Source: Planctopirus limnophila DSM 3776
Lineage (GTDB): Bacteria > Planctomycetota > Planctomycetia > Planctomycetales > Planctomycetaceae
DNA: 32,000 bases
Reading direction: 5' to 3'
Assembly (NCBI RefSeq): GCF_000092105.1
Contig: NC_014148.1
Span: 600,001-632,000 of the forward strand
Shown here piece by piece: positions 13,445 through 32,000 of this stretch. Made by a program: the position numbers and the translations under genes. Position 1 is the first letter of the stretch, and every line of letters begins with the position of its first letter. The notes beneath the pieces are model-generated. The model ran no database searches and was not told the origin of the DNA. It worked only from the letters and a program-made list of their open reading frames with translations.

Positions 13445-13518
13445 TATTTTCTGGGCCTGTGTGTTACAACAGATTGCTTCTTTGTTGATTTTGTATCTGT
13501 CTGAAAAGTGAGTTTGTT

Positions 13519-14448: not shown

Positions 14449-14450
14449 TT

Positions 14451-16428: not shown

Positions 16429-16599
16429 TTTGGCATGTGAGCACATGTTCACAGTTTCTGTTGTGCAGGCAGGAAATCAACTTTGATGCCGAACTTGCGG
16501 AATTGAGATTGACAAATTCCTGTATCGATTGCGAGTTGGGAATTTGAAAGATAGACTATGCCGCTTCCTCAATGGAAGTGGTCCTTGTGAAGGCAGATT

Positions 16600-16716
16600 A
16601 TGAAGGTCAGGACAAGCGTTAAGCGGATTTGTGAGCATTGCAAGATGGTGCAGAGGAAGGGTCGCGTCTACGTGATCTGTTCGATGAACCCTCGGCACAA
16701 GCAGCGCCAGGGTTAG
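16600..16716 (+). CDS. rpmJ: 50S ribosomal protein L36 (zinc-binding form)
   Basis: Not in the supplied ORF track because it is under 60 aa. Hand translation gives [38 protein letters not shown], canonical L36 with a CxxC...C...H motif. Confidence 0.93.
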
Positions 16717-16867
16717 AACGTTTCTTGCGGAGCTTACAATGAAAGCGTCCGTAACTGATGTGTATGTCTAGTTTTTGATTGTCGCGATCGATTTTGCCAG
16801 TGACTGTCGGGGCTGGCTTGTGATTGCAATTCGTGCCGATTGTCACAGCTTGAGAGAGTAGCTCGTT

Positions 16868-17254
16868 ATGCCGCGTATTCAGGGGGTTGATATCCCCAAT
16901 GACAAACCGACTTACATTTCGCTGCAATACCTTTACGGTGTGGGTGATTTCCGCGCATTTGAGATTTGTTTCAAGCTGGAGATCGATCCTCAGCGGAAAG
17001 CTCGTGAGTTGAGCGATGACGAGCTGGCACGCATCTCGGCCATGCTTGATAAGGATTACCTCGTGGAGGGGTCGTTAAGGCGAAGTATTCAGCAGAATAT
17101 TTCGCGTTTGCGTGACATTCAGTCCTATCGCGGGTTGCGTCATCGTCGAGGCTTGCCTTGCCGAGGTCAACGAACTCGTACGAATGCTCGTACTCGTAAG
17201 GGCATTAAGAAGACGGTTGCCGGTAAGAAGGGCGTGAAGGATATGAAGCACTAA
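16868..17254 (+). CDS. rpsM: 30S ribosomal protein S13
   Basis: 128 aa, MPRIQGVDIPNDK....SLQYLYGVG...SYRGLRHRRGLP.RGQRT.TNART. Confidence 0.95.
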   Translation: MPRIQGVDIPNDKPTYISLQYLYGVGDFRAFEICFKLEIDPQRKARELSDDELARISAMLDKDYLVEGSLRRSIQQNISRLRDIQSYRGLRHRRGLPCRGQRTRTNARTRKGIKKTVAGKKGVKDMKH

Positions 17255-17355
17255 GCCGCCACGTGTGTGAGTGGTCTGTGCTTGTGTTCTGCAGTCTCGG
17301 TTTGGTTGCATTTCTGTTCGTTTTTTGATGGCGGTTGACGCCTGAGGGTTTGATA

Positions 17356-17736
17356 GTGGCAAAGACTAAGCGTCGTAAGATTCGTCGCAACGTGAACCGC
17401 GGTATTGCACATATCCGTGCGACTTTCAATAACACGACAGTGACTATCACTGACGCAAATGGTGATGTGCTCTGCTGGGCCACCGCTGGAACAGTGGGCT
17501 TCAAAGGGAGCCGTAAAAGTACTCCTTTCGCCGCTCAGCGTGCTGCTGAGACATGTGCCGAACGCGCTGCCAAGTTCGGTGTTCGAGAAATGGAAATCCG
17601 CGTTAAGGGGCCTGGTTCTGGCCGCGAGAGCGCTATCACCGGCCTTCAGGGTGCTGGTATCTCCATTCGCTCGATTGAAGATGTCACGCCACTGCCGCAC
17701 AACGGCTGTCGGCCACCGAAGAAGCGCCGCGTCTGA
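17356..17736 (+). CDS. rpsK: 30S ribosomal protein S11
   Basis: The ORF opens at a TTG at 17335. The GTG at 17356 ([29 protein letters not shown]) fits the S11 N-terminus. The start is uncertain. Confidence 0.93.
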
Positions 17737-17865
17737 TTTACGTGCCGGCTGGTCAAGCACTTTCTGATCGGTGATTTGTTGAAACTATGTAGTCTGCCGT
17801 CTTTCTACGAGATTGACCTGACGTACACGTTAAGTTTGAGTCCTGTGGCTTTTGGAGATTGACAG

Positions 17866-18876
17866 ATGCGGATTCGCTGGCGTGGACTGGAATTGCCGAG
17901 CCGGGTTGTTCCTGAGCGCGAGACATTGAGTTCGACTTACGGCAAGTTTACAGTTGAACCGTTCGAACGTGGTTTCGGTTCAACGATCGGTAACAGCTTG
18001 CGTCGGATTCTGCTTTCCAGTCTGGAAGGTAGCTCTGTGACTTCGGTCAAGATTCAAGGTGTCCAGCATGAATTCACGACGATCCCGGGGATTGTCGAGG
18101 ATGTGACTGAGATCGTTCTGAATCTGAAGGCGATCATCGTCAAGAATCACAGTCCTTCGACCAAAACTCTGCGAATTGAGAAGACCTCGCGTGGAGTTGT
18201 TACTGCTGGCGATATCATCACCGATGATCAGGTGGAAATCCTGAATCGTGATCTCGTGATCGCCACGATGACTGATGACGTGCCCCTGTATCTGGAAATG
18301 ACCGTTGAGAATGGCCGTGGTTATATTCCTGCGGCTGATCATCATGGTCCGGAACAAGAGCTGGGAGTTATTCCCCTCGATGCGATTTTCTCACCTGTGG
18401 TTCGTGTCCGTTATCTGATCGAGGAGACTCGAGTTGGTCAGCGGACGAACTACGACCGCCTGATCCTCGAAATCTGGACCAACGGTACAGTCACTCCTGA
18501 ATCTGCACTCGTGGAGTCTGCCAAGATTCTGCGCAAGCATCTCAATCCGTTTATTACCTACCGCGAGCCAGGTCCGGAAATGTTCCCGGAAGGTGGACTC
18601 CGGAATATGCTCGAAGCTACGGGATATGCTCCTGTGGATCTTGAGTTGGAAGAGAAGCTGGGCCAGAGTCTGGCTGAGCTGAATCTTTCTGTGCGTGCGA
18701 CGAACTGTCTGGAATCTGAAGGAATTAACTTCGTTCGAGACCTTGTGACGCGAACGGAAGATCAACTTCTGCAGGTGCGAAATTTCGGTGAGACAACCCT
18801 TACGGAAGTTCGCGAGCGTCTGGGATTGATTGGCTTGCGGTTGGGTATGAAGTTGCCTAACTCGGCACGTGTTTAG
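17866..18876 (+). CDS. rpoA: DNA-directed RNA polymerase subunit alpha
   Basis: 336 aa, [17 protein letters not shown]...; the C-terminal domain has [14 protein letters not shown]...E..LL.VRNFGE. Confidence 0.96.
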
Positions 18877-18965
18877 TTTAGCTGTTTACCTGCCTTCAGG
18901 CAGTGAGTTTTGTTCGACATTACTGGATTGCCGGGCTCTGCCCGTGAGAGACATTAGGATTTATC

Positions 18966-19583
18966 ATGCGACATAAAGTTGCCGGGCGCCAGCTCGGGCG
19001 CAATGCATCACATCGTCATGCCATGTTTCGGAACATGTCAGTCAGTTTGATTTTGACAGTTCGTTCCGAAAAGAAGGACGGCGAAGCGAAAGTCCCAGGT
19101 CGGATTGTGACAACTCTTGAGAAGGCGAAAGAGTTGCGTCCTCATCTGGAGAAGCTGATCACGCTGGCTAAGCGAGCTCAGGAGGCTGAAAAGGCCGCCG
19201 CTCCGTTTGCTACCGCTGCTGAGAGAAACTCCGAAGAGTGGCGAGCCTGGCGTAAGTCAGACCAGTGGCAGAAGTGGTCGAACGCTATTGCTCCCGCCGT
19301 TGCACTTCGTCGCAGGGCCTTCGCTGCTCTGCGTGATAAAGTGGCTTTAGAGATTCTGTTCGATGATCTCGGGCCTCGATTCGCCGATCGTCCGGGTGGA
19401 TATCTCCGGATTGTTCGACTTGCTGAATTCCGTCTGGGCGATGCCGGGAGGCGTGCACTGATCGAATTCGTCGGTGAGAATGATCGCCTCAAACGACAGA
19501 GACGCGCAGCTCCAGTGGTCAGGCAAGAGGCACCGCCAGCTGAAGTAACTTCTCCTGAAGCTCCCGCTGCTGATCCCGTCTAG
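18966..19583 (+). CDS. rplQ: 50S ribosomal protein L17 (extended, 205 aa)
   Basis: The N-terminus [24 protein letters not shown] and the GGYLRIV core are canonical L17. An internal insertion of about 50 aa and a Pro/Ala-rich C-terminal tail lengthen it. Confidence 0.93.
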
Positions 19584-19612
19584 GCTGGATGAGTTTTTCG
19601 ATGAGATACCTT

Positions 19613-22819: not shown

Positions 22820-24886
22820 TCAGCTGGCTGTGGCCTCGCGTTCGATGTCATCCGAGTTGAACTGGACGTCGACCAGAGTTGTCACCGGGTACCCACTGCG
22901 GGGATTCTGACCTTTGCGGAACTGCAGTCGCCAGATGAGATTGCCGTTAAGTTCATCGATACCGCCGGCCTCGGAAGGGAGAAAAGTCTCAATAGACTCT
23001 CCCGGTGCGAGCGCAATCCCCAGGGGCATGTTGGCAATCGACACTTCATCTTGCAGAGGGAGTTCAAAAAGATTGATCACACCGGTATCTGACGCCAGTT
23101 GATCGGCCCACTTGATGAACTGATTGGCACGACTGCCAAATCGTCGATCACGAAAAAATACCAGCTCTCGATCCAAAGGGATAATGGTCTGATCCCGGCT
23201 GACATTCTTGAATCGAACGAGCAGCTTCAGAACTGGCTCGGTTGTTTCTGATGAGGAGTTCGAGGCATTCTGCACGATGCTGATCGGGCCGCGAGTGACT
23301 TTCAGTGGAGTCAATTCGATGTTGCCGAAGCGACGCGTCTGATTCAGTTTGAGGGTGTGTAGCGGGGCCACACGATTGTCGGGATTGATGAGTGTGACTG
23401 AGATGCCGGTGGCGGGCGGTTTGATATCCGGCAGGCTTTCGAGTTGATGGTAAGGTTGTCTCATGTATTGCACGATGAAAAAGAGAAGTGCAAGAGTCGA
23501 GGCACTGGCATAGCCCGCCAGCAGGAGAAAGAGTTGCCTGGAGACGACCTCTTCTTTTCGGAGAGATGCAGGATTCTCCGGAAAAGCGTCGGCAGTTCCG
23601 GCCGATAAACTTCCGACTGGCACAGGTTGCCTCGAGAACTGAAAATTACCCTCCTGAACTTTGTCTCCTGATCGTTTTTCTGATGTAGTTCCAGTGGAAA
23701 CCAGAGTGAGATCTTCACCGGTCGGAAAAGGTTGGGCCAGTTGGGAGAAGCTGGATAGCTGTTGGACATCCAGATTCGTCTCGGGGGTTTGTGCAGCCAC
23801 TAACGGCTGATCAAGATTTGAGAGAAAAGCGAGCGATTGATCTTCGGCGGAGTTGATTTCCGTACCTGCGGAGATCGATGGCGCATTTGATGTGGCGACG
23901 GCTGGGAAATCGGGGGTTGCTGAATCTCCGTGACCTTGCGTCGTTACGTCAACAGTCATCGAAGGTTCTGTGAGATTCATGGCAGGCTCTGCTGTCATGA
24001 GCCCAACGCCGGCTGTCTGTCGAATGAGTTCGGCCAGTTGTGGTGATGACTGGGAGAAGTGATCTGTTTCCGGATCGCTGGTATGAAGATCGTTGCTGAG
24101 GGATGGATCGATCGTTGTGGCTATGGTGTGGCCTGGTAGACCAGCCGGAGAACTATAGCTGTCATCTGCAAGTGTTGGATTTAGAGTCTCTTCAGTCACG
24201 GCAGGGAATGATTCACTGATTTCCTGCAAACTGGAATGGGGGGCGATCACTGGCTGTGAGTCGGGTATGAAGTCGAACACCACCTCTTCTTCCGGCTCGC
24301 TGGTCACGGCATGGGCTGGTTCAAAAGAAGGCATGCCAGGAAGAGATTCTGCCGGCACTGTTTCCGCGATGATTGATCCCAGACTTGGAATGGGGAGCTC
24401 ATCCATCCCGGGAAGATGTGGGCTCGGAAATACAAAAGACTGCAAATCATCATGATGTTCGCCAGGGCCTGAGGGCTCTGTCGAGGATGGAACAGTCTGG
24501 AGAAAATCGAAGTTGACGGTCGCCGGACTTGTTGCGCCTGTCGGGCTGTCGATAGCAGGTATGAACGGAGGCAAGAAATCTTTTGAGGCCATCGGGGAGG
24601 AAGTTGTATTGGTCGAAAAATCAGGCTGAGGTATGGATGACAGAAAATCCGGGATTGATGCTGATCCAGGGAAATTCTTGGCAGGGGCACCAAGCTGAGA
24701 AAAATCAAATGTCGAATCGATGCTCTCTGCTTCGGAACTCACCGGAGCGACAGGCTCGGACTCCACGGGGATTTCTGATTGAACTTCGAGATGGGCACCG
24801 CACTCGGGGCACTCCACAACCACATTTCCTTCGGCCTCGACCATCATCGGGTTTTGACAGGAGCCGCAGATAATCTCAAATGGCAT
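22820..24886 (-). CDS. Zinc-ribbon / disordered linker / single-TM / C-terminal domain protein
   Basis: 688 aa. The N-terminus has CGSC...(16 aa)...CPEC (a zinc ribbon). About 400 aa of Pro/Ser/Thr/Glu-rich low complexity follow. One TM helix (LFLLLAGYASASTLALLFFIV) precedes a folded C-terminal domain of about 200 aa. Confidence 0.65.
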   Translation of the reverse strand: MPFEIICGSCQNPMMVEAEGNVVVECPECGAHLEVQSEIPVESEPVAPVSSEAESIDSTFDFSQLGAPAKNFPGSASIPDFLSSIPQPDFSTNTTSSPMASKDFLPPFIPAIDSPTGATSPATVNFDFLQTVPSSTEPSGPGEHHDDLQSFVFPSPHLPGMDELPIPSLGSIIAETVPAESLPGMPSFEPAHAVTSEPEEEVVFDFIPDSQPVIAPHSSLQEISESFPAVTEETLNPTLADDSYSSPAGLPGHTIATTIDPSLSNDLHTSDPETDHFSQSSPQLAELIRQTAGVGLMTAEPAMNLTEPSMTVDVTTQGHGDSATPDFPAVATSNAPSISAGTEINSAEDQSLAFLSNLDQPLVAAQTPETNLDVQQLSSFSQLAQPFPTGEDLTLVSTGTTSEKRSGDKVQEGNFQFSRQPVPVGSLSAGTADAFPENPASLRKEEVVSRQLFLLLAGYASASTLALLFFIVQYMRQPYHQLESLPDIKPPATGISVTLINPDNRVAPLHTLKLNQTRRFGNIELTPLKVTRGPISIVQNASNSSSETTEPVLKLLVRFKNVSRDQTIIPLDRELVFFRDRRFGSRANQFIKWADQLASDTGVINLFELPLQDEVSIANMPLGIALAPGESIETFLPSEAGGIDELNGNLIWRLQFRKGQNPRSGYPVTTLVDVQFNSDDIEREATAS

Positions 24887-25037: not shown

Positions 25038-25075
25038 CAACACCCGCGGGCCGGAATTTCGACCCGCGGGTGTTG
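25038..25075 (-). terminator. Terminator hairpin downstream of rsr
   Basis: 13-bp perfect GC-rich stem CAACACCCGCGGG / CCCGCGGGTGTTG with a 12-nt loop. On the - strand it is followed by TTATTTGAT and lies 41 nt after the rsr stop. Confidence 0.7.
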
Positions 25076-25115: not shown

Positions 25116-26753
25116 TTACAGTTCGATCGCTTCCACTTCAGCCACGAATCGCTGGTTGTTGTCAGCGAGGAATGCACTGATCACGTTGAACACGGCGTCA
25201 CTGAAGCCACCGATGTTCATGATGTCAGTTCGCTCACAAGCCTGGACTGTCTGGTACGGCTGCAAGTCGATGTTAATCAACTTCGGTGGGGCAGCTTTTC
25301 GGCTCAGCTTTCGCTGGTTCGATGAAAAAGCTTCCCAGGCCGTCATCACACCGGTTGAACCGTGCCGTCCTGTTCCGACCCAACTCTCGTTATCGCTCAC
25401 GAGAACCATGCCGGCGAACTTTCGTCTCGCATACTTCTGGTTGGCAACAACCAGTGGCAGCGAACAATCCGTTCCGCCACCGCCGTACTTCGCCAATCGC
25501 TGAGCAATGCTCAGGATCGAATCGTTGGGATCGATCTTCACATCGTAAGCCGACGTATCGAACGGAATCACAACGCTGGCCGGGTTACGCCTGAGGATCG
25601 CTGCTGCGAACAGTGCTGCCACGTCGATGCAGCGCATCTTCGAAGTTGCACCTCGTCCACGGTTCCCAGTGACCGGGCTGCTCATTGATCCAGATGTATC
25701 CAGACCAATCACCACCGGTCCCGGCAACTCCGGTACGTTTCCACAGGCGATCTCGGCGGCCTTATGCAGTGCAGTCTTGATCTTCTGCGGAACGTTGTCG
25801 TCTGCGTTCAAGTACGCAGCAAAGTACTGGTACGGGAACTGCTTGGAGCGTTGAATCTCCGTCTTGTCAGCGATCCGGTCAGCCACGTAATCAACCATTG
25901 CACTTGTGGCGAGCACATCGTGTCGCAGCAAAGTGTTCAAGTTCATACGTAGTGCCTGCGGACCCATCTTGCGAGCCAGAACTGCCCAAACCTTCGGTCC
26001 CCTGGCGGCATCGGACAACAAGTCCCAGCGGACGATGTCGAGTCCACCAGCGATCAAGGCCTGCGCTTCTTCGCTTTCCGACTTGCGGTACGCGATCAGC
26101 GACTGAACTTCGACCGGCAGGTCGGCTTCCGTGGCGGGTGCCCACTTGTCGATGCTCTTATCGGTCAACCAACCGAACATCGCCCGGCGAGCGTTGTCCT
26201 TAGGTGTCGGTCGAGCCATACGCAGGATATCCCGCAAGCTCGGATCGTTACCGATAGACGCGCTCAACAGCTTTCCAACCGAGGCGGTGTTTAGCCAACG
26301 CTGGAAGGCTCGCTGCACAGAGCTCGACAAGCCAACGCGACTCTTACCGGCCTTGTTCTTGAACTGACCTGAGCGAATCATCTGGAACACAGTTCGCAGA
26401 ACGCGACCGTTGTCGACCACGCGATCGAAGACGCGATGCATCAACTCGGTATCACGAACTGACAGCGCGACCAGCAATGCAGCCGGCATGTCTTTCATGA
26501 ACGCTTTCTCACGAGCATAGAGAGCCAGCTTCGCCAGGTACTGGTTGTCGTCGACTGTGTCGATCAACTTGAGCACTTCGTCGAGCTGTGATTCTGCAGT
26601 ACTGTAGAACGCGTTGTTGAAGGTGCCGGTAGCAGCCACCTGGGCCAGCGCGTGTTTAGGTTCGAGTTGATATGCGAGGCCACCGGCTTCGTTGACGGCG
26701 TTGGCCTTCGGGAGTCGGCCAAGTATGCTTGCGAAAAGAGACATGTTTGCCAT
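25116..26753 (-). CDS. rsr: Ro 60-kDa autoantigen orthologue (Rsr): TROVE domain plus vWA domain
   Basis: 545 aa. The N-terminal text ([30 protein letters not shown]; [20 protein letters not shown]) is typical of bacterial Ro/TROVE proteins. The C-terminal vWA domain has the MIDAS motif [12 protein letters not shown]. Confidence 0.85.
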
Positions 26754-26771
26754 AGTGGAATTGTGAAGTTT

Positions 26772-26789
26772 GAAGTTCGAAGTTTGAAA
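26772..26789. repeat. Left arm of an 18-bp perfect inverted repeat bracketing the four-helix-bundle gene
   Basis: GAAGTTCGAAGTTTGAAA is the exact reverse complement of 27187..27204. It belongs to the same family as the palindromes in the tRNA-array spacers. Confidence 0.9.
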
Positions 26790-26837
26790 CCGTAAGATGA
26801 CGGCGCGAGTCAGTAAGTTTGAATAGTCGAAGGTAAT

Positions 26838-27185
26838 ATGAAGAGCGATTTACCTGATAGAACGTTCGCGTTTGCAGAAAGAATTGTGCGGTTTTGTATG
26901 TTCTTGGAGCAAAATGGCAGAGTGTCAACAACATTGGCAACGCAACTGCTTAGGTCGGGTACATCGGTGGGAGCCAACGTTGAGGAAGCTGGAGCATCAG
27001 AGAGCCGCAAAGACTTCATTCACAAGTATGCAATCGCTTGCAAAGAGGCACGCGAGTCTCATTACTGGCTTCGTCTATTGGCCGTGTCAGAGGTCGTTCC
27101 AAAAGATCGATTAGAACTACTCACGAGTGAAGCAAATGAACTCATCGCTATTTTGACAACGATCATCAAGAAGTCGCGAGAATGA
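26838..27185 (+). CDS. Four-helix-bundle protein (23S rRNA intervening-sequence protein family)
   Basis: 115 aa. The text F..RI..F...L......[17 protein letters not shown]....S.KDFIHK..IA.KEARES.YWLRLL is diagnostic of this family. It is the only + strand gene in the island. Confidence 0.85.
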
Positions 27186-27186
27186 A

Positions 27187-27204
27187 TTTCAAACTTCGAA
27201 CTTC
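27187..27204. repeat. Right arm of the 18-bp inverted repeat
   Basis: TTTCAAACTTCGAACTTC begins 2 nt after the four-helix-bundle stop codon. Confidence 0.9.
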
Positions 27205-27486
27205 CCATTTTGAACTTCGTCGGTGTACTCTGAATCAGCAGGCAATCATTATCTCGGCTTGAAAATGTTGGAACGAGGTATGAACAAGAGTTGCCTTTCG
27301 GCAATACGGACTTCCGACTTCAAGCAACATTGTCACTCGACCGTTGACAGGCATGTCTATCTTTGAAAAGACTCGCATGCCATTCACTAGCGGGTCACCC
27401 CGCAATCGCTACCTTAGGCCCGTCATGGAATCCTGTCCGTCAGTTCCAGCCCTTGTTGGACTCATTGATGAGATGGAAGGTTCGCT

Positions 27487-27723
27487 TCACTTCAGCGATC
27501 TTGAAGGCATTAAAGCCGGAATCCGGTCCATGTTCGCATCGACGAGTTCCTCGATAATGCTCCCTAGAGTGGTTCTGTTGCCAGAGCTGAAGGGTAGATT
27601 CGCGTCAAGGTCGATAAGCATGCAGTGCCGATGCGTATTATATGGACGTTTGGTCTTTTCCAAGCCATATCCGTGATTCTTGTACTGAAGCGAATGGCGC
27701 CATCGATGTTTCTCACTCGTCAT
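27487..27723 (-). CDS. Hypothetical small ORF overlapping the RNA ligase stop (possibly a gene remnant)
   Basis: 78-aa ORF whose ATG overlaps the ligase 3' end by 11 nt. No recognisable motif. Other frames further downstream on the - strand (lower coordinates) give only short open stretches, so this may be a decayed gene. Confidence 0.25.
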   Translation of the reverse strand: MTSEKHRWRHSLQYKNHGYGLEKTKRPYNTHRHCMLIDLDANLPFSSGNRTTLGSIIEELVDANMDRIPALMPSRSLK

Positions 27724-28774
27724 ACTTCACAAGAAAGGCGGGGTTAATCGCTTTAAAGCTTAATCGTCCCCCCGTGTCCGGCTCGAATGTTTCCGATATG
27801 GGACGGAGAACGATTCCTTCGCGCAAGGTGGATGAGTTCAAAACACTTTTTCCTTCGGCGAGCTTAATCAGTTCGTCGATGGAATGGTTCAGTGTCACCT
27901 TTTCGAGGAATGGTACCGCCACGAGACCAAGCGACTTAATCACCTCTTGCATTTGATCGAAGTCCAACAGCATCCCGGTCGTTAAGTTCACGACATTAAA
28001 AATTCTCAGTGTCACAAACTCGAGCCGGTATTTATTGCCCTGGATTCCCGGGCCAATCATCTCTCCTTGAACCGCCAGGTCGAAGCCTAGTTGCTTTGAC
28101 ATTTCAGCCAGCTTTTCCCTCAAATGGAATGACTCGGCAATGGCGACATACTTCGATGTGCCATCCATCTCGTCAATCCACTGATTGCGGCTGCAGATGC
28201 CGAACTGAGACTGATAATGGAATGCCGTGAAGGAACTTCCATCGAGCTTTTCGGTGACAATCAACTCTTTTCCTTTGTGTCGCTCGAGTGCGTCTGCGAG
28301 CAGCTGAACACGAGTTTCATCTGTTTTGGGCACAAAGCTTGGAAACGGACCTTTAATCTTGCCAACCATACCAGCAGGTATAGGGGGCTCCCATTTCACG
28401 ATGCCGAGCTCGGCAGTGACTTCAGTGCCGAGCGGCAGGTGATCACCGTTCGGCACCAGGGAAACGGGAAAACAAATTCCTTGTGAATATTGTCCGCGGA
28501 GTTTGATTGTGCGAATTCGGAAACCAGCTGGTACCGCAATGCGACCGGTCGCATCGATTTGTGCGGGCTTGAAGCAATTGCTACGGAGAAACTCGAATTC
28601 TGAACGCTCGGGAAGGAGTGAGTCGATTTCACAATAGATGATTTTGTCACCGACGCGATACTCTCCGCGCTTGACCACAACCGCCCAACCCAAAATCCTT
28701 GCCAGTTCAATCGAGTCTGCATTTGTGATTGGCTCGATGGCTGAAATTGTCTGTATGGTTGCCAGTTTTCGCAT
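27713..28774 (-). CDS. ATP-dependent RNA ligase, DraRnl (DRB0094) type
   Basis: The ORF opens at 28813, but MRKLATIQTISAIEPITNADSIELARILGWAVVVKRGEYRVGDKIIYCEIDSLLP (ATG at 28774) is the characteristic N-terminal OB-like module of this family. The nucleotidyltransferase motif I lysine lies in TEKLDGSS. Confidence 0.8.
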   Translation of the reverse strand: MRKLATIQTISAIEPITNADSIELARILGWAVVVKRGEYRVGDKIIYCEIDSLLPERSEFEFLRSNCFKPAQIDATGRIAVPAGFRIRTIKLRGQYSQGICFPVSLVPNGDHLPLGTEVTAELGIVKWEPPIPAGMVGKIKGPFPSFVPKTDETRVQLLADALERHKGKELIVTEKLDGSSFTAFHYQSQFGICSRNQWIDEMDGTSKYVAIAESFHLREKLAEMSKQLGFDLAVQGEMIGPGIQGNKYRLEFVTLRIFNVVNLTTGMLLDFDQMQEVIKSLGLVAVPFLEKVTLNHSIDELIKLAEGKSVLNSSTLREGIVLRPISETFEPDTGGRLSFKAINPAFLVKYDE

Positions 28775-28826
28775 GTTTTTTGAGATTTGGAGTAAAGGAA
28801 GATGAGCAGTCATTTTGGTTTACGAG

Positions 28827-28896
28827 CAGGAACGCAGTGATTCGAACACTGTCCATCGGTTTTGGAGGCCGAGTCCGCTCCCAGGCGAACATTCCT
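28827..28896 (-). tRNA. tRNA-Trp (anticodon CCA), no encoded CCA end
   Basis: Manual cloverleaf: AGGAATG T TCGC-CTGGGA-GCGG AC TCGGC CTCCAAA ACCGA TGGA CAGTG TTCGAAT CACTG CGTTCCT G. It has the A1-U72 pair and G73 typical of bacterial tRNA-Trp. The D region is compact and there is a C31xA39 mismatch. Confidence 0.7.
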
Positions 28897-29222
28897 GTAG
28901 AATAAGGAACAAAAGGTAAAGTAAAAGAGATCAGCGGGGCGACCGAAATGCGAGACGATAGCAATCTGCAGGCGTCTCTGCGCCCGAAAGTAACCGTGTG
29001 CATCGGCAACGCATCGAATCTGGCCAAGGCAATCACCTCAGAAATACAAATGTGTTGGCCTGCCGAATAAATGGCTCATCGCGAGCCGGCACAAGCCGGC
29101 TCTATTCATTTCAGTCATACAACTGGTAATCCATGAGATCGACAATCCTGGCAGTGTCGTTCAACGGGATGATCCGAACACGCAGATCCGTAGCTATAGC
29201 AAGCTCCAGCGCTGGCGTTGGT

Positions 29223-29753
29223 TCATGCATCATCCTGACTTTTCGAAACAGGCTCGGGTCCACTCCTGCTCAGACGATCGACAAGTGCGAGAATCGTGGG
29301 AGTCCTGTAACTTCCGTGCATCTCGCTCACGCACCTTGCCGCTTCGCTTTCGTTGGTTCCCACTGCTGTGATCCAGAGTGGTCTCGAACTTTTCCCCCGA
29401 TAAACTTCAATCGCGTTTTTTGCTGTCGCAAACGAAGTCTTGGCCACACCGATCACCGGGACTTGACCTTCAAGTAACTCGAACAGGTGAGCACCCAACC
29501 CCCTTTTTCCGTTGGCATCGAGCCATACGTATCCGTCGACAACGATAAGGCTTGGTTTGGCAACAAGCTGATTCAGTACTGCCTTTATGCATGGCAGTTC
29601 GCGTTTGTAAAATTCTCCAGGGATGTAATCTTCGATGCTCGGAATCTCGACCGTGTGACTCCCCTGTGGCAACTCTGCCTTCCAATCGGAGATTGTGACG
29701 CATGCCGCCAGCGCAGATTGCACTTGATATCCGACATCGACGCAAGCGATCAC
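29223..29753 (-). CDS. nfi: Endonuclease V family protein (short form)
   Basis: 176 aa, GTG start preceded by AAAGGAGG. It aligns by eye to EndoV blocks: VDVGY (catalytic Asp), YIPGEFYKRELP (Glu), LIVVDGYVW (Asp), PVIGVAKT (Lys), PLWITAVG. It lacks about 30 N-terminal residues of E. coli Nfi. Confidence 0.7.
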   Translation of the reverse strand: MIACVDVGYQVQSALAACVTISDWKAELPQGSHTVEIPSIEDYIPGEFYKRELPCIKAVLNQLVAKPSLIVVDGYVWLDANGKRGLGAHLFELLEGQVPVIGVAKTSFATAKNAIEVYRGKSSRPLWITAVGTNESEAARCVSEMHGSYRTPTILALVDRLSRSGPEPVSKSQDDA

Positions 29754-29772
29754 AATTTCCTCCTTTGATTAA

Positions 29773-29917
29773 AACACCTGACGAGGTTGTGGCCAGAGTT
29801 ATTACCTCGACGGACGCAAAGCGACCTTCGAGGTTCCGGCCCATTGTTACATTAACGAGTGGACCGGGCGGGAATCGAACCTGCTAAACCATGTACTCCG
29901 AACCGGCAGTCAAGTGT
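29773..29917 (-). ncRNA. Structured RNA B: Y-RNA-like stem plus permuted tRNA-like domain (paralogue of RNA A)
   Basis: On the - strand the parts run in this order. Basal helix ACACUUGAC / GUCAGGUGU (9 bp, one G-U). Internal loop UGCCGGU / CCACAACCUC. Helix UCGGAGU / ACUCUGG. T-arm GCAGG-UUCGAUU-CCCGC. The acceptor 3' strand CCGGUCC pairs with GGGCCGG across an 18-nt closing loop. A long hairpin (CCUCGA...UCGAGG) replaces the D-arm. The RNA ends 20 nt before the EndoV start codon. Confidence 0.5.
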
Positions 29918-29918
29918 T

Positions 29919-30082
29919 GTTTCAAAACGATCGATGAAGAGATGTGTCAGAGGGTTTACGGCGCTCTACCACTGAGCTACGGCGCAATGAACTAAATCAA
30001 AGTTGCGCCAGTGGGATTCGAACCCACGACTTCCGGCTTATCAGGCTGTGCTCCAACTCGGCAGTCGATCGTTGTTTGAGAC
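29919..30082 (-). ncRNA. Structured RNA A: candidate YrlA-type Y RNA with a circularly permuted tRNA-like domain
   Basis: On the - strand the parts run in this order. Basal helix GUCUCAA-[AC bulge]-AACGAUCGA / UCGAUCGUU-UUGAAAC. Internal loop CUGCCGAG / CACAUCUCUUCA. Helix UUGGAG / CUCUGA. Anticodon-loop-like heptamer CUGAUAA. T-arm GUGGG-UUCGAAU-CCCAC. The acceptor 3' strand UGGCGCA is closed by a 17-nt loop onto the 5' strand UGCGCCG (7 bp). A fully canonical U8 A9 and D-arm GCUC-AGUGGUA-GAGC follow. Confidence 0.55.
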
Positions 30083-30156
30083 TTTAGGATTCAGGTTCCA
30101 GGTATCAGGTGTGGATTTCCTGAAGACTGACACCTGACTCCTAAAGACTGTTCTAG

Positions 30157-30228
30157 TAGCTCGACCAGGAGTCGAACCTGGAACTTCTCGTTAGAAGCGA
30201 GAGGTGATATCCACTTCACCATCGAGCT
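30157..30228 (-). tRNA. tRNA-Arg (anticodon UCU)
   Basis: AGCTCGA TG GTGA-AGTGGATA-TCAC C TCTCG CTTCTAA CGAGA AGTT CCAGG TTCGACT CCTGG TCGAGCT A. All stems are perfect. No CCA is encoded. Confidence 0.85.
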
Positions 30229-30234
30229 GCGAGC

Positions 30235-30279
30235 AGTCTTGAGGAGGGAGACTTGAGTCTGAAGAAAATCCTCAAGACT
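30235..30279. repeat. Spacer hairpin (11-bp perfect inverted repeat)
   Basis: AGTCTTGAGGA (30235..30245) pairs with TCCTCAAGACT (30269..30279), between tRNA-Ser(GCU) and tRNA-Arg(UCU). Confidence 0.8.
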
Positions 30280-30309
30280 CACATCTCACTCCTCACTACT
30301 GTTTTTGAG

Positions 30310-30395
30310 CGGAAGGTAAGGGATTCGAACCCATATAGCACGAATGCTGCACTGTTTAGCAAACAGGCCCGGCCAACCATATCCGGCTACCTTCC
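30310..30395 (-). tRNA. tRNA-Ser (anticodon GCU), type II
   Basis: 86 nt. Acceptor GGAAGGT/ACCTTCC, G73, anticodon loop TTGCTAA. The long variable arm is GCAGCATTCGTGCTAT (AGCA-TTCG-TGCT) and the T-loop is TTCGAAT. Position 8 is A, and there are single mismatches in the T and anticodon stems. Confidence 0.75.
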
Positions 30396-30398
30396 AAT

Positions 30399-30474
30399 TC
30401 AGGTTTCTGACCTCGGGTTTCAGAATTCAGGTTTTGAAATTCCTGAAGCCTGATAACTGACTCCTGAAACCTGA
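30399..30474. repeat. Spacer hairpins of the CAGGTTTC/GAAACCTG family
   Basis: Outer stem TCAGGTTTC (30399..30407) / GAAACCTGA (30466..30474). An inner stem TTCAGG...CCTGAA is also present. Confidence 0.7.
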
Positions 30475-30478
30475 TGAG

Positions 30479-30552
30479 TGACGCAGGCGGGATTTGAACC
30501 CGCAATCACGAAGGTTTAAGCTTCGCCGCTATTCCAATTCGCGTACCGCGTC
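30479..30552 (-). tRNA. Type I (short variable arm) tRNA with Leu anticodon UAA
   Basis: GACGCGG TA CGCG-AATTGGAAT-AGCG G CGAAG CTTAAAC CTTCG TGATT GCGGG TTCAAAT CCCGC CTGCGTC A. 74 nt with a 5-nt variable loop. U8, A14 and G18G19 are present. Confidence 0.7.
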
Positions 30553-30570
30553 GGAAAAAGTTTGAATTGA

Positions 30571-30620
30571 GAAGTGTGAAGTGTGAAATTTCAAACGTCG
30601 AACTTCACAATTCACACTTC
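30571..30620. repeat. Spacer palindrome of the GAAGT/ACTTC family
   Basis: 17-bp stem GAAGTGTGAAGTGTGAA / TTCACAATTCACACTTC (1 mismatch) with a 16-nt loop. Confidence 0.8.
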
Positions 30621-30624
30621 CAAA

Positions 30625-30697
30625 CGGCCTGCCAAGGAATCGAACCTTGTCTGAAAGTTTCGAAGACTCTCGTGCGAATCCATCACACTCGCGGGCC
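30625..30697 (-). tRNA. tRNA-Arg (anticodon UCG), non-canonical details
   Basis: GGCCCGC GA GTGT-GATGGATTC-GCAC G AGAGT CTTCGAA ACTTT CAGA CAAGG TTCGATT CCTTG GCAGGCC G. It has a C5xA68 mismatch, and positions 8 and 14 are G instead of U and A. Confidence 0.6.
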
Positions 30698-30745
30698 CTA
30701 TCAACACGTATCAGGGGGAAGGCATCAGGTTTCAGGAAGAGGAAA

Positions 30746-30817
30746 TATCCTTGCCAGGAGTTGAACCTGGTCCGTAACCTTCGCAGGGTTAAATGCAGTC
30801 CCTTACACCTCAAGGAC
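30746..30817 (-). tRNA. tRNA-Arg (anticodon GCG)
   Basis: GTCCTTG AG GTGT-AAGGGACT-GCAT T TAACC CTGCGAA GGTTA CGGA CCAGG TTCAACT CCTGG CAAGGAT A. It has a G1-U72 pair and A at position 8. Confidence 0.65.
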
Positions 30818-30851
30818 ATTAAATGGAACCTGAATCCTGAAACGTGATTAG

Positions 30852-30924
30852 TGGTGCAGGGGGGATTCGAACCCACAAACACTTGTTTCTAAAACAAGCC
30901 GCTCAGCCGCTGGCGTACTGCACC
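30852..30924 (-). tRNA. Type I (short variable arm) tRNA with Leu anticodon UAG
   Basis: GGTGCAG TA CGCC-AGCGGCTG-AGCG G CTTGT TTTAGAA ACAAG TGTTT GTGGG TTCGAAT CCCCC CTGCACC A. 73 nt with a 5-nt variable loop and one U50xC64 mismatch. Confidence 0.7.
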
Positions 30925-30934
30925 GAAAGAATTG

Positions 30935-30993
30935 TGAATTGAGAAGTTAGAACTGTGAAGTGGGAAGTTTCAAACTTCAAACTTCTGAATTCA
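30935..30993. repeat. Spacer palindrome of the GAAGT/ACTTC family
   Basis: Outer stem TGAATTGAGAAGTT / AACTTCTGAATTCA (1 mismatch). The inner palindrome is GAAGTTTCAAACTTC (30964..30978). Confidence 0.75.
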
Positions 30994-31003
30994 AACTTCC
31001 GAG

Positions 31004-31078
31004 CGACCCATACCGGATTTGAACCGGTGATCTCCGCCGTGACAGGGCGGCGTCCACTCCAGGCTGGACCAATAGGCC
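31004..31078 (-). tRNA. tRNA-Asp (anticodon GUC)
   Basis: GGCCTAT TG GTCC-AGCCTGGAGT-GGAC G CCGCC CTGTCAC GGCGG AGATC ACCGG TTCAAAT CCGGT ATGGGTC G. It has G73 and two G-U pairs in the acceptor stem. Confidence 0.8.
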
Positions 31079-31089
31079 GTAAACAAAAG

Positions 31090-31161
31090 AGGCGCTACCG
31101 AGATTCGAACTCGCGATCAGCGTGTTTTGCAGACACGCCCCGCACCAAGCGGATTAGCGCC
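31090..31161 (-). tRNA. tRNA-Cys (anticodon GCA)
   Basis: Acceptor GGCGCTA/TAGCGCC with U73 (a Cys identity element). Anticodon arm CGTGT-CTGCAAA-ACACG, T-arm GCGAG-TTCGAAT-CTCGG, compact D-arm CCGC-TTGGT-GCGG. Confidence 0.75.
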
Positions 31162-31170
31162 GTGATTAAA

Positions 31171-31243
31171 TCGTCCTGGACAGACTCGAACTGTCGATCG
31201 ACTGTTTGTAAGACAGATGCCTTCGCCGCTAGGCCACAGGACG
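31171..31243 (-). tRNA. tRNA-Val (anticodon UAC)
   Basis: CGTCCTG TG GCCT-AGCGGCGA-AGGC A TCTGT CTTACAA ACAGT CGATC GACAG TTCGAGT CTGTC CAGGACG A. Confidence 0.8.
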
Positions 31244-31259
31244 ATGCGTTTAAAAAGAG

Positions 31260-31341
31260 CGGAAGACCAGGGACTCGAACCCCGAAGCGCCAGGCGCCAG
31301 CCGTTTTCAAGACGGTTTCCTCATCCAGCCGGATGTCTTCC
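31260..31341 (-). tRNA. tRNA-Ser (anticodon UGA), type II
   Basis: 82 nt. Acceptor GGAAGAC/GTCTTCC, G73, anticodon loop CTTGAAA, variable arm with stem GCGC-CTG-GCGC (loop CUG on the - strand RNA), T-arm CGGGG-TTCGAGT-CCCTG. Confidence 0.75.
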
Positions 31342-31345
31342 AGAT

Positions 31346-31401
31346 CAGGTTTCAGGCATCAGGGATCAGGCTTCAGAGCGAGAAGGGGGACCTGAAACCT
31401 G
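31346..31401. repeat. Spacer hairpin of the CAGGTTTC/GAAACCTG family
   Basis: 11-bp perfect inverted repeat CAGGTTTCAGG (31346..31356) / CCTGAAACCTG (31391..31401). Confidence 0.8.
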
Positions 31402-31414
31402 AAGTCTGGCAAAG

Positions 31415-31488
31415 GGTGACCGATCGGAATTGAACCGACATCGACCTGGTTCACAGCCAGGTTCCTGAAACCAATACAGGACGGCCAC
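31415..31488 (-). tRNA. tRNA-His (anticodon GUG)
   Basis: Acceptor GTGGCCG/CGGTCAC with C73. Anticodon arm CCTGG-CTGTGAA-CCAGG, T-arm GTCGG-TTCAATT-CCGAT. The genomic nucleotide at position -1 is U, not G. Confidence 0.75.
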
Positions 31489-31490
31489 AT

Positions 31491-31565
31491 TGCCGGAGGC
31501 AGGAATCGAACCTGCGAGCTTCTGGTTCAGAGCCAGACGCAACGACCAACAGTTGCTACTCCGGT
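31491..31565 (-). tRNA. tRNA-Gln (anticodon CUG)
   Basis: Acceptor ACCGGAG/CTCCGGC (A1xC72 unpaired). D-arm GCAA...TTGC, anticodon arm TCTGG-CTCTGAA-CCAGA, T-arm GCAGG-TTCGATT-CCTGC. Confidence 0.7.
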
Positions 31566-31582
31566 AATTTGATATCTATCAA

Positions 31583-31654
31583 CCCGGGCGGAAGGAGTTG
31601 AACCTTCATACCACTGCTTCAAAGGCAGTTGGCTTACCATTAGCCGACATCCGA
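31583..31654 (-). tRNA. tRNA-Gln (anticodon UUG)
   Basis: D-arm GGCT-AATGGTA-AGCC, anticodon arm ACTGC-CTTTGAA-GCAGT, T-arm GAAGG-TTCAACT-CCTTC. The acceptor TCGGATG/CGCCCGG is weak (one AxC mismatch and two G-U pairs). Confidence 0.6.
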
Positions 31655-31672
31655 ACAACCTTCATCAAACAG

Positions 31673-31818
31673 AGTGCCATGTCGGAGTCGAACCGACCTG
31701 ACCGAATTGGAAGGTTTTTCACGTTGTTTCATGATCGACTTCGTTGGGGAATCAATCGTTGCACAACGTGTGACTTTCCGGCCACCTTTAAAAACCTTTG
31801 CCGCTCGGCCAATGGCAC
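31673..31818 (-). tRNA. 146-nt tRNA-like gene with a structured insertion of about 75 nt in the anticodon-arm position
   Basis: Perfect 7-bp acceptor GTGCCAT/ATGGCAC. Type-II-like 5' half TGGCCGAGCGGCAAAGG. T-arm GTCGG-TTCGACT-CCGAC. Between them lies a 9-bp helix AAGGTTTTT/AAAAACCTT enclosing an 8-bp helix CACGTTGT/ACAACGTG and a 6-bp helix GATTGA/TCGATC. No 7-nt anticodon loop is identifiable. Confidence 0.45.
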
Positions 31819-31829
31819 GGTGGGAGTTT

Positions 31830-31858
31830 GAAGTTCGAAGTTTCAAACTTCGAACTTC
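31830..31858. repeat. Uninterrupted copy of the palindrome that is split around the four-helix-bundle gene
   Basis: GAAGTTCGAAGTTT-C-AAACTTCGAACTTC has 14-nt arms identical to the outer 14 nt of the arms at 26772..26789 and 27187..27204. Confidence 0.85.
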
Positions 31859-31879
31859 TCAATTCACACTTCTGAAAGG

Positions 31880-31954
31880 CTCCGGCGGCAGGAATCGAAC
31901 CTGCGTCCAGGCGATTAACAGTCGCCTTCCCGTACCAGCACAGGACCCACCGGA
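31880..31954 (-). tRNA. tRNA-Asn (anticodon GUU)
   Basis: TCCGGTG GG TCCT-GTGCTGGTAC-GGGA A GGCGA CTGTTAA TCGCC TGGAC GCAGG TTCGATT CCTGC CGCCGGA G. It has the U1-A72 pair and G73 of tRNA-Asn. Position 8 is G. Confidence 0.7.
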
Positions 31955-32000
31955 GTAAGATCAGGTTTCAGACTTCAGGAGTCAGCTTTCAGGAGAAAAT

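Follow-up and report, generated by a model that had tools for sequence, protein, structure and literature searches.

Why should a Ro60 orthologue, an RNA ligase, an endonuclease V (EndoV) homologue, Y-RNA-like RNAs and a long series of tRNA genes lie next to each other on a single strand of a bacterial chromosome? The question is raised by a 32,000-nt stretch of the genome of Planctopirus limnophila DSM 3776 (the window in the following), in which such elements fill the last ~7 kb of the minus strand. The original prediction, an earlier reading of this DNA, regarded them as one RNA-centred module and not as a chance neighbourhood. In our analysis, the region probably makes up the 3' two-thirds of an island that is horizontally mobile, occurs in many Planctomycetota and backs up or repairs the translation apparatus; we assign this reading a probability of roughly 0.6. 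We are confident in its evolutionary and anatomical part and regard its functional part, the backup or repair of translation, as about an even bet; a role in RNA damage or tRNA backup would be the most reasonable explanation of what the island does.

All elements that had been listed for this region are present at or near the positions assigned to them, and all are encoded on the minus strand, apart from one inserted gene on the plus strand (26838-27185). Profile hidden Markov model (HMM) searches likewise bear out the three protein calls on which the prediction rested, those of Rsr, the ligase and EndoV. Several elements had escaped the earlier reading, namely an HNH pseudogene, the remnant of a third Y RNA, a truncated tRNA-Gly, a 16-bp terminator located past rsr and the part of the tRNA array that extends beyond the window.

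Our comparison is anchored on Rsr, the Ro60 orthologue, and covers 79 loci from one-genome-per-species contigs, together with those of Planctopirus ephydatiae, Crateriforma conspicua and one IMG/VR contig; counts of upstream tRNAs are restricted to the 31 loci with at least 7 kb of sequence upstream of rsr. Coordinates outside the window refer to locus labels, of which L001 denotes the extended P. limnophila locus, L084 that of P. hydrillae and L005 that of Crateriforma conspicua. In 13 of the 31 loci, 10-34 same-strand tRNAs are found within 9 kb upstream of rsr; one other locus has 6 tRNAs, and another has a 29-tRNA array on the opposite strand. From Planctopirus to Crateriforma and Mariniblastus-like metagenome-assembled genomes (MAGs), these tRNAs share one order, Phe-Glu-Ala-Pro-Ile-Lys-Ile-Lys-Thr-Gly...Asn...Gln-Gln-His-Ser-Val-Cys-Asp-Leu-Arg-Arg-Leu...Ser(GCU)-Arg(UCU). 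The array is followed by Y RNAs A and B, a variable cassette, tRNA-Trp(CCA), usually tRNA-Thr(UGU), small open reading frames (ORFs; SEC-C, u121), one or more further Y RNAs and rsr. At least 13 species-level genomes, with Rsr identities as low as 67-70%, have the array, the Y RNAs, tRNA-Trp and Rsr in this sequence on one strand. Because of this recurrence, chance adjacency is rejected for these four elements, so that the idea of one module holds for a syntenic core; it does not extend to the ligase (4 loci) and EndoV (6 loci), for which chance adjacency is not rejected as far as an obligate partnership is concerned. Judged by gene order, the island core is the array, the Y RNAs, tRNA-Trp and Rsr, and the ligase and EndoV are accessory cargo of a Planctopirus-like lineage, with the qualification that EndoV also occurs in Crateriforma and is thus not confined to that lineage.

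The cargo differs from genome to genome. HNH genes are found in 13 loci, genes for a 23S-rRNA-intervening-sequence protein (IVP) in 10, compact EndoV in 6, Pth2 directly after rsr in 6, Band-7 in 5, among them the island versions of P. hydrillae, P. ephydatiae and Crateriforma, and the Rnl5 ligase in 4. A group of Tpt1, two Macro and ADP-ribosylglycohydrolase genes is present in ~4 loci and a 450-aa beta-propeller-like ORF in 4, and RtcB, RtcA and RtcR are absent from the island ORFs and from the clustered related loci. In Crateriforma conspicua (L005:13181-16471) and in L077, L047 and L018, Tpt1/KptA, two Macro proteins, a 175-aa ORF of unknown identity and an ADP-ribosylglycohydrolase follow directly after rsr. 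By homology, we read the Tpt1/Macro/ADP-ribosylglycohydrolase genes as an ADP-ribose and 2'-phosphate RNA end-processing set on the same island.

Several lines of evidence suggest that the island is mobile. Rsr is 92-93% identical between Planctopirus, a member of the Planctomycetales, and complete genomes of Pirellulaceae, a family from a different order. Between P. limnophila and P. ephydatiae, the block of Y RNA, EndoV and tRNA-Trp shows 93.5% DNA identity and rsr 91.7%, while the flanks are without similarity. This high identity of Rsr across orders, combined with differing flanks, indicates that the island moves horizontally. Furthermore, several MAGs carry two or three island copies, and genes for a large serine recombinase, DUF2924 and a ParB-like protein stand beside rsr in ~10 loci and also in L090. 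The patchy distribution and the linked HNH gene, intact in 13 loci and a pseudogene in P. limnophila, are those described for horizontally transferred L-arrays. The P. limnophila and P. hydrillae copies are collinear and differ in Band-7, Pth2, tRNA-Leu(CAA), the IVP cassettes and the proximal Y RNAs; the P. ephydatiae island lies in a neighbourhood other than that in P. limnophila.

The largest part of the island is the tRNA array, of which 14 tRNAs were located by ARAGORN in the window (30156-31954, minus strand). In transcription order, these are Asn(gtt), Gln(ttg), Gln(ctg), His, Ser(tga), Val(tac), Cys, Asp, Leu(tag), Arg(gcg), Arg(tcg), Leu(taa), Ser(gct) and Arg(tct), with a truncated Gly(tcc) after Asn. 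The latter (31672-31713, minus strand) retains the 3' 42 nt of the gene, is 97.6% identical to the intact gene in relatives and lies in a 222-nt gap between tRNA-Asn and tRNA-Gln. Together with tRNA-Trp, ARAGORN thus finds 15 tRNAs, to which the truncated tRNA-Gly is added, in agreement with the minimum of 15 tRNA or tRNA-like genes claimed earlier. It had also been suggested that the array begins beyond position 32000, and its remainder is indeed found there: Gly(gcc), Lys(ctt), Ile(tat), Lys(ttt), Ile(gat) and Ala(tgc), along with a second IVP cassette and, ahead of them, a leader. The full array of P. limnophila therefore comprises 20 tRNAs (L001:3546-6598) at a density of 6.5 per kb and without periodicity, and falls within the definition of L-arrays (at least 20 tRNAs, at least 2 per kb, same orientation, non-periodic). 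None of the array tRNAs in the window has an encoded CCA end. In the sole case that was compared, the array tRNA-Asn(GUU) of P. ephydatiae matches the canonical tRNA-Asn(GUU) located 10 kb away at 46 of 76 positions, and its D arm is non-standard. A tRNA-Ile with anticodon UAU occurs in the arrays of P. limnophila (L001:4032-4105, beyond the window), L005, L023, L045, L069 and L090. This tRNA is uncommon in bacteria, in which AUA is normally read by a lysidine-modified CAU tRNA.

On the Rsr side of the Y RNAs lies tRNA-Trp(CCA) (28826-28896, minus strand), which was found by ARAGORN and is supported by covariation. It has an A1-U72 pair and G73, its D loop is short, its anticodon and T loops read CUCCAAA and UUCGAAU, respectively, and the CCA end is not encoded. 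In 14 distinct homologues, pairing in the cloverleaf amounts to 97.6%, and 11 of its 21 pairs have changed in a compensatory manner, whereas controls with slid partners reach at most 52.9%. We therefore regard it, by its predicted structure, as a well-formed tRNA and as the conserved Rsr-side tRNA of the module. In most relatives, it is followed after 6 nt by a 'tRNA-Thr(UGU)' (L011:1939-2013 and ~20 other loci), which is missing from the window. With its atypical D arm (GGCUCGACUGAGAAAGGC) and T loop (GCGCGAAUC), this gene may encode a tRNA-like RNA instead of a decoding tRNA.

Between the array and the protein-coding genes lie two RNAs, A (approximately 29923-30077) and B (approximately 29771-29922), both on the minus strand and both claimed earlier to be structured and to contain tRNA-like domains. 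For RNA A, this claim is fully sustained. It matches the YrlA family RF02553 with 37.6 bits (E 8e-7) in a local alignment covering only the tRNA-like core, and an alignment of 30 A-type sequences with a mean column identity of 60% reveals five helices. Two are stems, one terminal and one internal; the others are a T arm (with GGUUCGAAUCC), an acceptor-like stem-loop and a D arm (with GUAGCUCAGUGGUAGAGC). Of all cells in this alignment, 97.9% are paired, and compensatory changes occur in 19 of 30 pairs; the observed values are not attained by any of 500 shuffles, and partners slid by 1-3 columns pair in at most 56.5%. Its domain order is that of a permuted tRNA-like domain, with T arm, acceptor-like stem-loop and D arm enclosed by the terminal and internal stems, which is the architecture that defines YrlA (PMC4201824; bioRxiv 10.1101/312249).

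For RNA B, the claim stands in part. It matches RF02553 over its full length with 22.6 bits (E 0.017) and has a terminal stem (ACACUUGAC...GUCAGGUGU), a T-arm-like hairpin and an acceptor-like hairpin; it is devoid of a canonical D arm and carries a lineage-specific extra hairpin in its place. With RNA A it shares a 5' GACUGCCG...GGAGUACAU module, a 3' CUUCGUCA module, the T arm and the acceptor-like hairpin. Its folding z-score is -4.0, and covariation is modest (6 of 24 pairs); RNAalifold yields a poor consensus structure for the RNA B alignment, so that the assignment of the shared modules rests on homology to RNA A. Homologues of RNA B adjoin RNA A in more than 20 loci. More generally, in nhmmer searches with both RNAs, 42 loci yield same-strand homologues upstream of rsr; among the 60 loci that extend at least 1 kb upstream of rsr, 38 have YrlA-like RNAs there on the same strand, and those of relatives reach 43-52 bits against RF02553. 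In the window, the rsr start codon is 3.0 kb away from the end of RNA B and 3.2 kb from that of RNA A, within the 4 kb of rsr in which YrlA is expected (Chen 2014, PMC4201824). Structure and homology taken together, we consider both to be real Y-RNA-like genes, and presume that they would be bound by the Ro protein of the island.

This protein, Rsr (25116-26753, minus strand, 545 aa), combines a TROVE domain with a Ro60-type vWA domain, as had been proposed, and both exceed their Pfam cut-offs (PF05731 TROVE, 43.6 bits, cut-off 23; PF25045 vWA_Ro60, 56.8 bits, cut-off 27.7). It also matches the phage family phrog_850, an RNA-binding protein, with 139 bits. Against NF041674, the Rsr equivalog model, it aligns end to end (residues 13-530) and scores 83 bits, short of the cut-off of 900. 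It is thus, by its profile scores, a divergent Ro orthologue, not one of the enterobacterial or Deinococcus type. Same-strand Y RNAs accompany it at two distances, with A and B 3.0-3.3 kb upstream and a proximal remnant ~470 nt upstream. The terminator-like hairpin after rsr (25038-25075, minus strand) begins 41 nt past the stop codon, has 16 bp, 12 of them G-C, and runs into TTATTT; it is likely the 3' end of the transcription unit, and no terminator of comparable strength was found within the island. The small gaps between its genes, the lack of a convincing internal terminator and the strong one after rsr are compatible with tRNA-mRNA co-transcription, by which the island would be expressed as one unit. 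The short gaps quoted earlier hold with slight corrections: ~18 nt instead of 20 between RNA B and the GTG start codon of EndoV, and 51-52 nt instead of 52 between tRNA-Trp and the ligase ATG at 28774.

The cargo in P. limnophila includes the EndoV homologue (29223-29753, minus strand), a compact protein of 176 aa, whose start is a GTG located five bases past AAGGAGG. It is recognized by PF04493 (Endonuclease_5) with 49.4 bits at a cut-off of 23.4, covers profile positions 19-139 of 198 and stays far under the Nfi equivalog cut-off (NF008629, 47 bits versus 230). Its AlphaFold model has a predicted local distance difference test (pLDDT) value of 89.8 and matches E. coli EndoV (4xpu) best among PDB entries (TM 0.77, probability 1.00), and the next 32 matches are also all EndoV structures, so that the earlier family call is confirmed by sequence and by predicted fold. 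The protein begins at the strand bearing the first catalytic Asp and is without the canonical N-terminal ~35-40 residues. It belongs to a family of 165-178 aa proteins found in Planctomycetota, Armatimonadota and Chloroflexota, in whose 35-sequence alignment full or almost full conservation is seen for D6, E52, D73, K105 and the wedge region (Y43-x-P-G46). These motifs align with VDV, PG..RE, DG and GVAK of 3goc and 4xpu, and the compact EndoV is apparently a competent enzyme. With canonical EndoVs (E. coli Nfi, T. maritima TM1865, mammalian ENDOV), it has in common the RNase H-like fold, the catalytic D/E/D/K and the YIPG wedge-like motif; it differs from them in its length (176 aa versus ~215-225 aa), in having DANGKR in place of the canonical 'HPRR', and in the position of its gene between Y RNAs and a tRNA.

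E. coli EndoV is active on inosine in DNA and RNA (PMC4842958), and EndoV has been described as an inosine-specific nuclease active on RNA whose biological role is unresolved (PMC7192598, PMC4842958). An island of RNA genes would offer a natural context for this long-unexplained RNA activity. One could also see in it a plain DNA-repair nfi gene for deaminated bases, in compact form, whose place in the island has no RNA meaning: the family is annotated as deoxyribonuclease V, its catalytic residues are canonical, and it occurs as a lone gene in other phyla. Set against this are the location of the gene on the same strand as Y RNA B and immediately after it, the high identity of the Y RNA-EndoV-Trp block between Planctopirus species with differing flanks, and the Crateriforma EndoV, which again lies within the island, between Band-7/tRNA-Arg and the Y RNAs. 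We consider the plain repair gene an unlikely but serious alternative. The islands of P. ephydatiae and Crateriforma have EndoV but not the ligase.

The 326-nt 'spacer' between EndoV and tRNA-Trp turned out to be the remnant of a frameshifted HNH homing-type endonuclease (28974-29266, minus strand), which tblastn retrieves in two frames (43% identity over 68 aa and 58% over 33 aa). At the same position, the 13 related loci mentioned above have an intact HNH homologue of 213 aa (PF01844, 54 bits).

The RNA ligase (27713-28813, minus strand) is, as had been recognized, an ATP-dependent enzyme of the Rnl5/DraRnl/NgrRnl type and not an RtcB. It exceeds the cut-off of TIGR02306 (RNA_lig_DRB0094; 190.2 bits, cut-off 151.15) and consists of an N-terminal OB domain and a nucleotidyltransferase domain (PF21189, 113 bits; PF09414, 99.5 bits). 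Its alignment with Naegleria NgrRnl (PDB 5cot; E 8e-62) is full length, covering residues 13-364, with motif I KLDGSS aligned to KLDGSS. It further matches phrog_968 with 260 bits. The probable start is the ATG at 28774, the choice of the gene caller; an upstream in-frame ATG at 28813 lies 12 nt from the end of tRNA-Trp. In the 4 related loci that have it, the ligase gene is inserted between tRNA-Trp and tRNA-Thr.

Whereas these genes share one strand, the sole plus-strand gene (26838-27185) belongs to an IVP cassette (26757-27219, plus strand). It encodes a 115-aa four-helix-bundle protein of the 23S-rRNA-intervening-sequence type and is found well above cut-off by the HMMs of its family (PF05635, 67.2 bits, cut-off 33.8; TIGR02436, 88.9 bits, cut-off 24). 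The gene is flanked by inverted repeats (26757-26789 and 27187-27219) composed of short tandem units, with 18 nt that are 100% complementary. It does not sit within a 23S rRNA gene but in a unit of tRNAs, Y RNAs and rsr, where it is likewise flanked by inverted repeats. Next to it remain the 5' ~30 nt (...AAUGAUUGCCUGCUGAUUCAGAGUACA) of a third YrlA-like RNA, A3 (27224-27254, minus strand), which was identified by alignment with P. hydrillae and a close MAG. Between ligase and rsr, A3 is intact in P. hydrillae (L084:9518-9658) and L063, and inspection by eye suggests two further Y-like GACUGCC...CUUCGUCGA units in P. hydrillae and L063 (L084:9518-9990). From this alignment, we deduce that the IVP cassette is an insertion that replaced the Rsr-proximal Y RNAs in P. 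limnophila. The second cassette of this genome lies at L001:4372-4793, approximately window 31961-32382, and more copies were seen in L005, L014, L019, L021, L034, L036 and L069; they are on the opposite strand, have inverted repeats of 18-32 nt and are inserted at varied points in the tRNA array and beside rsr. By their make-up, they look like intervening-sequence (IVS)-type elements that invade a non-rRNA RNA operon, and the stem flanking the IVP gene could permit its excision from the precursor by RNase III.

How the array might be controlled is suggested by the leader that precedes its first tRNA in 14 loci. It consists of a GCGAACC...GTCTAT box, an ORF of 33-90 codons encoding a peptide with little conservation between lineages, and a strictly conserved terminator (AACCCGGUGU-loop-ACACCGGGUUUUUU), located 40-55 nt before the tRNA and 26-50 nt past the stop codon of the ORF. 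In P. limnophila, the leader occupies L001:3100-3490, approximately window 33264-33654; it is also found at L002:4190-4560, L023:2904-3272 and L005:~1930-2290 and in L034, L036, L045, L049, L050, L066, L069, L084, L090 and L021. In all 14 loci, the stop codon of the ORF abuts a sequence resembling the 3' arm of the terminator, in the forms UAA-CACUSGG, UGA-CACUYGG, UGA-CAAGGG, UGA-CGCCUGG and UAG-ACCAGG. This sequence could pair with the 5' arm of the terminator as a candidate antiterminator, and a ribosome terminating at the stop codon would cover it; normal translation of the leader would then keep the array off, and failing translation would open it by attenuation. The coincidence with the stop codon is the stronger argument for such an antiterminator, stronger than the duplex energies of the terminator 5' arm and the upstream sequence, which are significant in only 3 of the 14 loci (z -2 to -3). 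Such a ribosome-dependent attenuator, sensing failing translation, is a tentative reading of the leader, to which we give somewhat less than even odds. An Rfam search of the leader returned no family (top match sraL, 16 bits, E 0.25), and a sigma-70 promoter scan with the E. coli consensus yielded fewer sites than in shuffled sequence and nothing useful. We did not call the GCGAACC...GTCTAT box a promoter, as it does not fit the E. coli consensus.

From these elements, the following scheme may be drawn. The core would run from a leader with short ORF and terminator through ~20-30 divergent, supernumerary tRNAs of the L-type, tandem YrlA-like RNAs and tRNA-Trp, trailed in most relatives by the odd tRNA-Thr, to more Y RNAs, rsr and a terminator. 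Cargo acting on RNA ends or tRNA (HNH, Band-7, EndoV, Rnl5 ligase, Pth2, and Tpt1 with Macro and ADP-ribosylglycohydrolase) would be swapped in and out, and IVP cassettes would come and go. Triggers might be damage to tRNA or rRNA or a block of translation, caused for instance by toxin RNases, anticodon nucleases, ribosome inhibitors or deamination. Upon such damage, the island would be induced and supply replacement or decoy tRNAs; the Ro-Y RNA particle would, as it does in Deinococcus and Salmonella, bring structured RNA that is misfolded or nicked to nucleases or repair enzymes, and the lineage-specific enzymes would heal, seal or dispose of the damaged ends. In P. limnophila, EndoV would nick 3' of inosine or other lesions, and the resulting 3'-OH and 5'-P ends would be sealed by the ATP-dependent Rnl5 ligase. 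This match in end chemistry is suggestive, although purely inferential. Taken to its conclusion, the scheme would make the locus a translation-rescue island, in which attenuator-switched spare tRNAs are operonically fused to a Ro-Y RNA particle and exchangeable end-healing and sealing enzymes, and in which EndoV and Rnl5 could form a cut-and-reseal pair acting on deaminated or damaged tRNA; this most elaborate version is doubtful.

A number of observations weigh against our interpretation of the region as a mobile island serving translation. There are no tRNAs near rsr in 11 of the 31 related Rsr loci, from which it follows that the array is not obligatory for Rsr. Both YrlA matches fall below the Rfam gathering score of 69 bits, and of the 15 in-window tRNAs, 10 reach the gathering score of the Rfam tRNA model (29) and five do not, namely Trp (28.0 bits), Arg-UCG (25.5 bits), Cys and two class-II Ser. 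The same compact EndoV family is found alone in unrelated contexts, in Capsulimonas and Gemmataceae, which argues for an opportunistic cargo and not for a dedicated partner. Serine recombinase, Pth2, Band-7, u121 and ParB are all missing from the window, and no integrase or recombinase is present there or in the 4.7 kb beyond, although a look for any integrase past position 32000 had been suggested. PADLOC finds no known defence system among the proteins, save for a generic HNH similarity. Finally, the local copy is decayed, as seen in the HNH pseudogene, the truncated tRNA-Gly and the loss of the proximal Y RNAs to IVP, so that the island may be partly inactive in P. limnophila.

Decay of the local copy is also what one would expect if the island were a counter-defence cassette derived from a phage or another mobile element, whose tRNA array, Ro/Y RNA, ligase, Pth2 and HNH serve that element, for example in replacing tRNAs cut by host anticodon nucleases in the course of infection or transfer, and which is domesticated or decaying in P. 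limnophila. We think this origin improbable at about the level of one chance among several. Rsr, HNH, Pth2 and the ligase, the latter with its match to phrog_968, all match phage protein families, whereas EndoV, IVP, u121 and u454 have no PHROG match. Ro homologues occur in 366 phage records, and tRNA arrays have been discussed as anti-defence (PMC12803027); yet the closest phage Ro, which in Myxococcus phage Mx1 lies among ~17 tRNAs, is only 40% identical, compared with 60-98% for chromosomal copies. Serine recombinase and ParB genes adjoin many island copies, and one IMG/VR contig carries the same island. Against this, no capsid, tail, terminase or replication genes were seen in neighbourhoods of ~20 kb, that contig included, and the P. 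limnophila island lies 5.5 kb from a ribosomal-protein cluster with no recombinase nearby. An outright prophage was rejected: around the islands of P. limnophila, P. ephydatiae, Crateriforma and the IMG/VR contig, only recombinase, ParB, DUF2924 and HNH genes were found.

Rather unlikely is a cryptic, largely silent L-array that was inserted by chance beside an ordinary rsr-Y RNA locus, tRNA-like sequences being hot spots of integration or recombination, with no functional coupling of the tRNAs, Rsr, EndoV and the ligase: the Rsr loci without tRNAs, the cargo that varies by genome, the compact EndoV found alone elsewhere and the several poorly scoring array tRNAs would fit such an insertion, but at least 13 species-level genomes keep the order of array, Y RNAs, tRNA-Trp and Rsr on one strand, the place of RNAs A and B is between the array and the remaining elements and not beside rsr, the cloverleaf of tRNA-Trp is maintained by compensatory changes, the cargo is consistently directed at RNA or tRNA (Pth2, Tpt1, ligase, EndoV, Band-7), and a conserved leader with terminator precedes the array, as a terminator follows rsr.

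The mobile island that we favour resembles several known systems. In Salmonella Typhimurium, the rsr-yrlBA-rtcBA operon couples Rsr and Y RNAs to the ligase RtcB (Chen 2013/2014, PMC4201824; Hughes 2020, PMC7790460). Both systems have Rsr, tandem Y RNAs, at least one of them with a tRNA-like domain, and an RNA ligase on the same strand. They differ in that the planctomycete ligase is of the Rnl5/DraRnl type and not RtcB, with no RtcA and no RtcR/sigma-54 regulator seen; in that the Y RNAs lie upstream of rsr, whereas those of Salmonella lie downstream; and in the addition of a 20-tRNA array, EndoV, an HNH remnant and an IVP cassette.

L-arrays, in turn, are spread by horizontal gene transfer, are linked to HNH, rtcB and RNA-processing genes, as reported for cyanobacteria, and in the trn operon of Anabaena PCC 7120 are induced by translational stress (Santamaria-Gomez 2021, PMC8421152). 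Planctomycetes are among the phyla in which tRNA arrays, also called 'tRNA array units', have been reported (PMC8421152; Tran 2015, PMC4758250). Like these arrays (PMC8421152, PMC4758250), ours is long, non-periodic and patchily distributed, consists of divergent tRNAs on the same strand, and adjoins HNH and RNA-repair genes. By contrast, the island array is joined to Rsr and Y RNAs, which are unmentioned in PMC8421152, and its ligase is Rnl5 instead of RtcB. The candidate for its control is a leader ORF with terminator, where the known L-arrays have promoter direct repeats bound by a repressor; the logic of translational stress would match that of the Anabaena array, and the mechanism would differ.

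The modular make-up of the island also has precedents. Burroughs and Aravind reportedly described, in 2016, modules in which a Ro and/or Band-7 scaffold and a tRNA-like RNA are combined with interchangeable ligases and end-healing enzymes. Rsr and YrlA 'occasionally' adjoin ligases of other families, and Band-7 is associated with tRNA-like RNA (bioRxiv 10.1101/312249, citing Burroughs & Aravind 2016). The syntax of these Rot/TROVE and Band-7 modules is alike; as far as citing papers (bioRxiv 10.1101/312249, PMC7824862) indicate, a full tRNA array or EndoV is not known as a component of them. Jumbo and other large phages carry Ro together with tRNAs and ligases (PMC7824862), and Mx1, in which Ro and its tRNAs are accompanied by peptidyl-tRNA hydrolase, HNH and phosphoesterase genes, offers the same functional palette. 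Besides Mx1 with its 40%, the actinophages (Bixzunavirus mycobacteriophages and Streptomyces phages) have Ro proteins of ~23% identity. Phage tRNAs are interspersed with phage genes instead of forming a compact array, and in mycobacteriophage Grungle only two are found near Ro, whereas the planctomycete island is without surrounding phage structural genes.

The combination had been presented as having no known description, which is true only in part. Rsr and YrlA beside non-RtcB ligases, as well as arrays with HNH and RNA-repair genes, have already been published separately, but our full-text literature search retrieved no paper that links tRNA arrays with Ro/TROVE. Within the literature searched, what looks new is the conserved array-Ro linkage, the compact EndoV cargo, the leader ORF with its terminator and the invasion of the operon by IVS-type cassettes. 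Bacterial Ro/Y RNA particles, like long tRNA arrays, are widespread and poorly understood, and each has separately been tied to RNA repair and survival of translational stress; their conserved physical linkage in many genomes argues for one pathway. P. limnophila, a culturable and sequenced organism, would allow this pathway to be tested. Moreover, the candidate attenuator could explain why 'cryptic' tRNA arrays are silent until needed, and the IVP cassettes speak for an invasion of RNA operons other than rRNA by four-helix-bundle cassettes of the IVS type.

As to the surroundings of the island in P. limnophila, positions 1-19600 of the window (plus strand) contain the end of rpoC, fusA, the S10-spc-alpha ribosomal-protein cluster, secY, rpoA and rplQ, and the island follows ~5.5 kb downstream of this core translation gene cluster, in convergent orientation. 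Directly downstream of rsr lies a gene for a 688-aa protein (22820-24886, minus strand), with an N-terminal zinc ribbon, a long low-complexity middle part rich in Ser, Pro and Thr, a predicted membrane segment and a conserved C-terminal domain. It is kept at the same position in P. hydrillae, with 86% identity, and is absent from the other island copies; being confined to the P. limnophila and P. hydrillae copies, it probably marks the boundary of the island.

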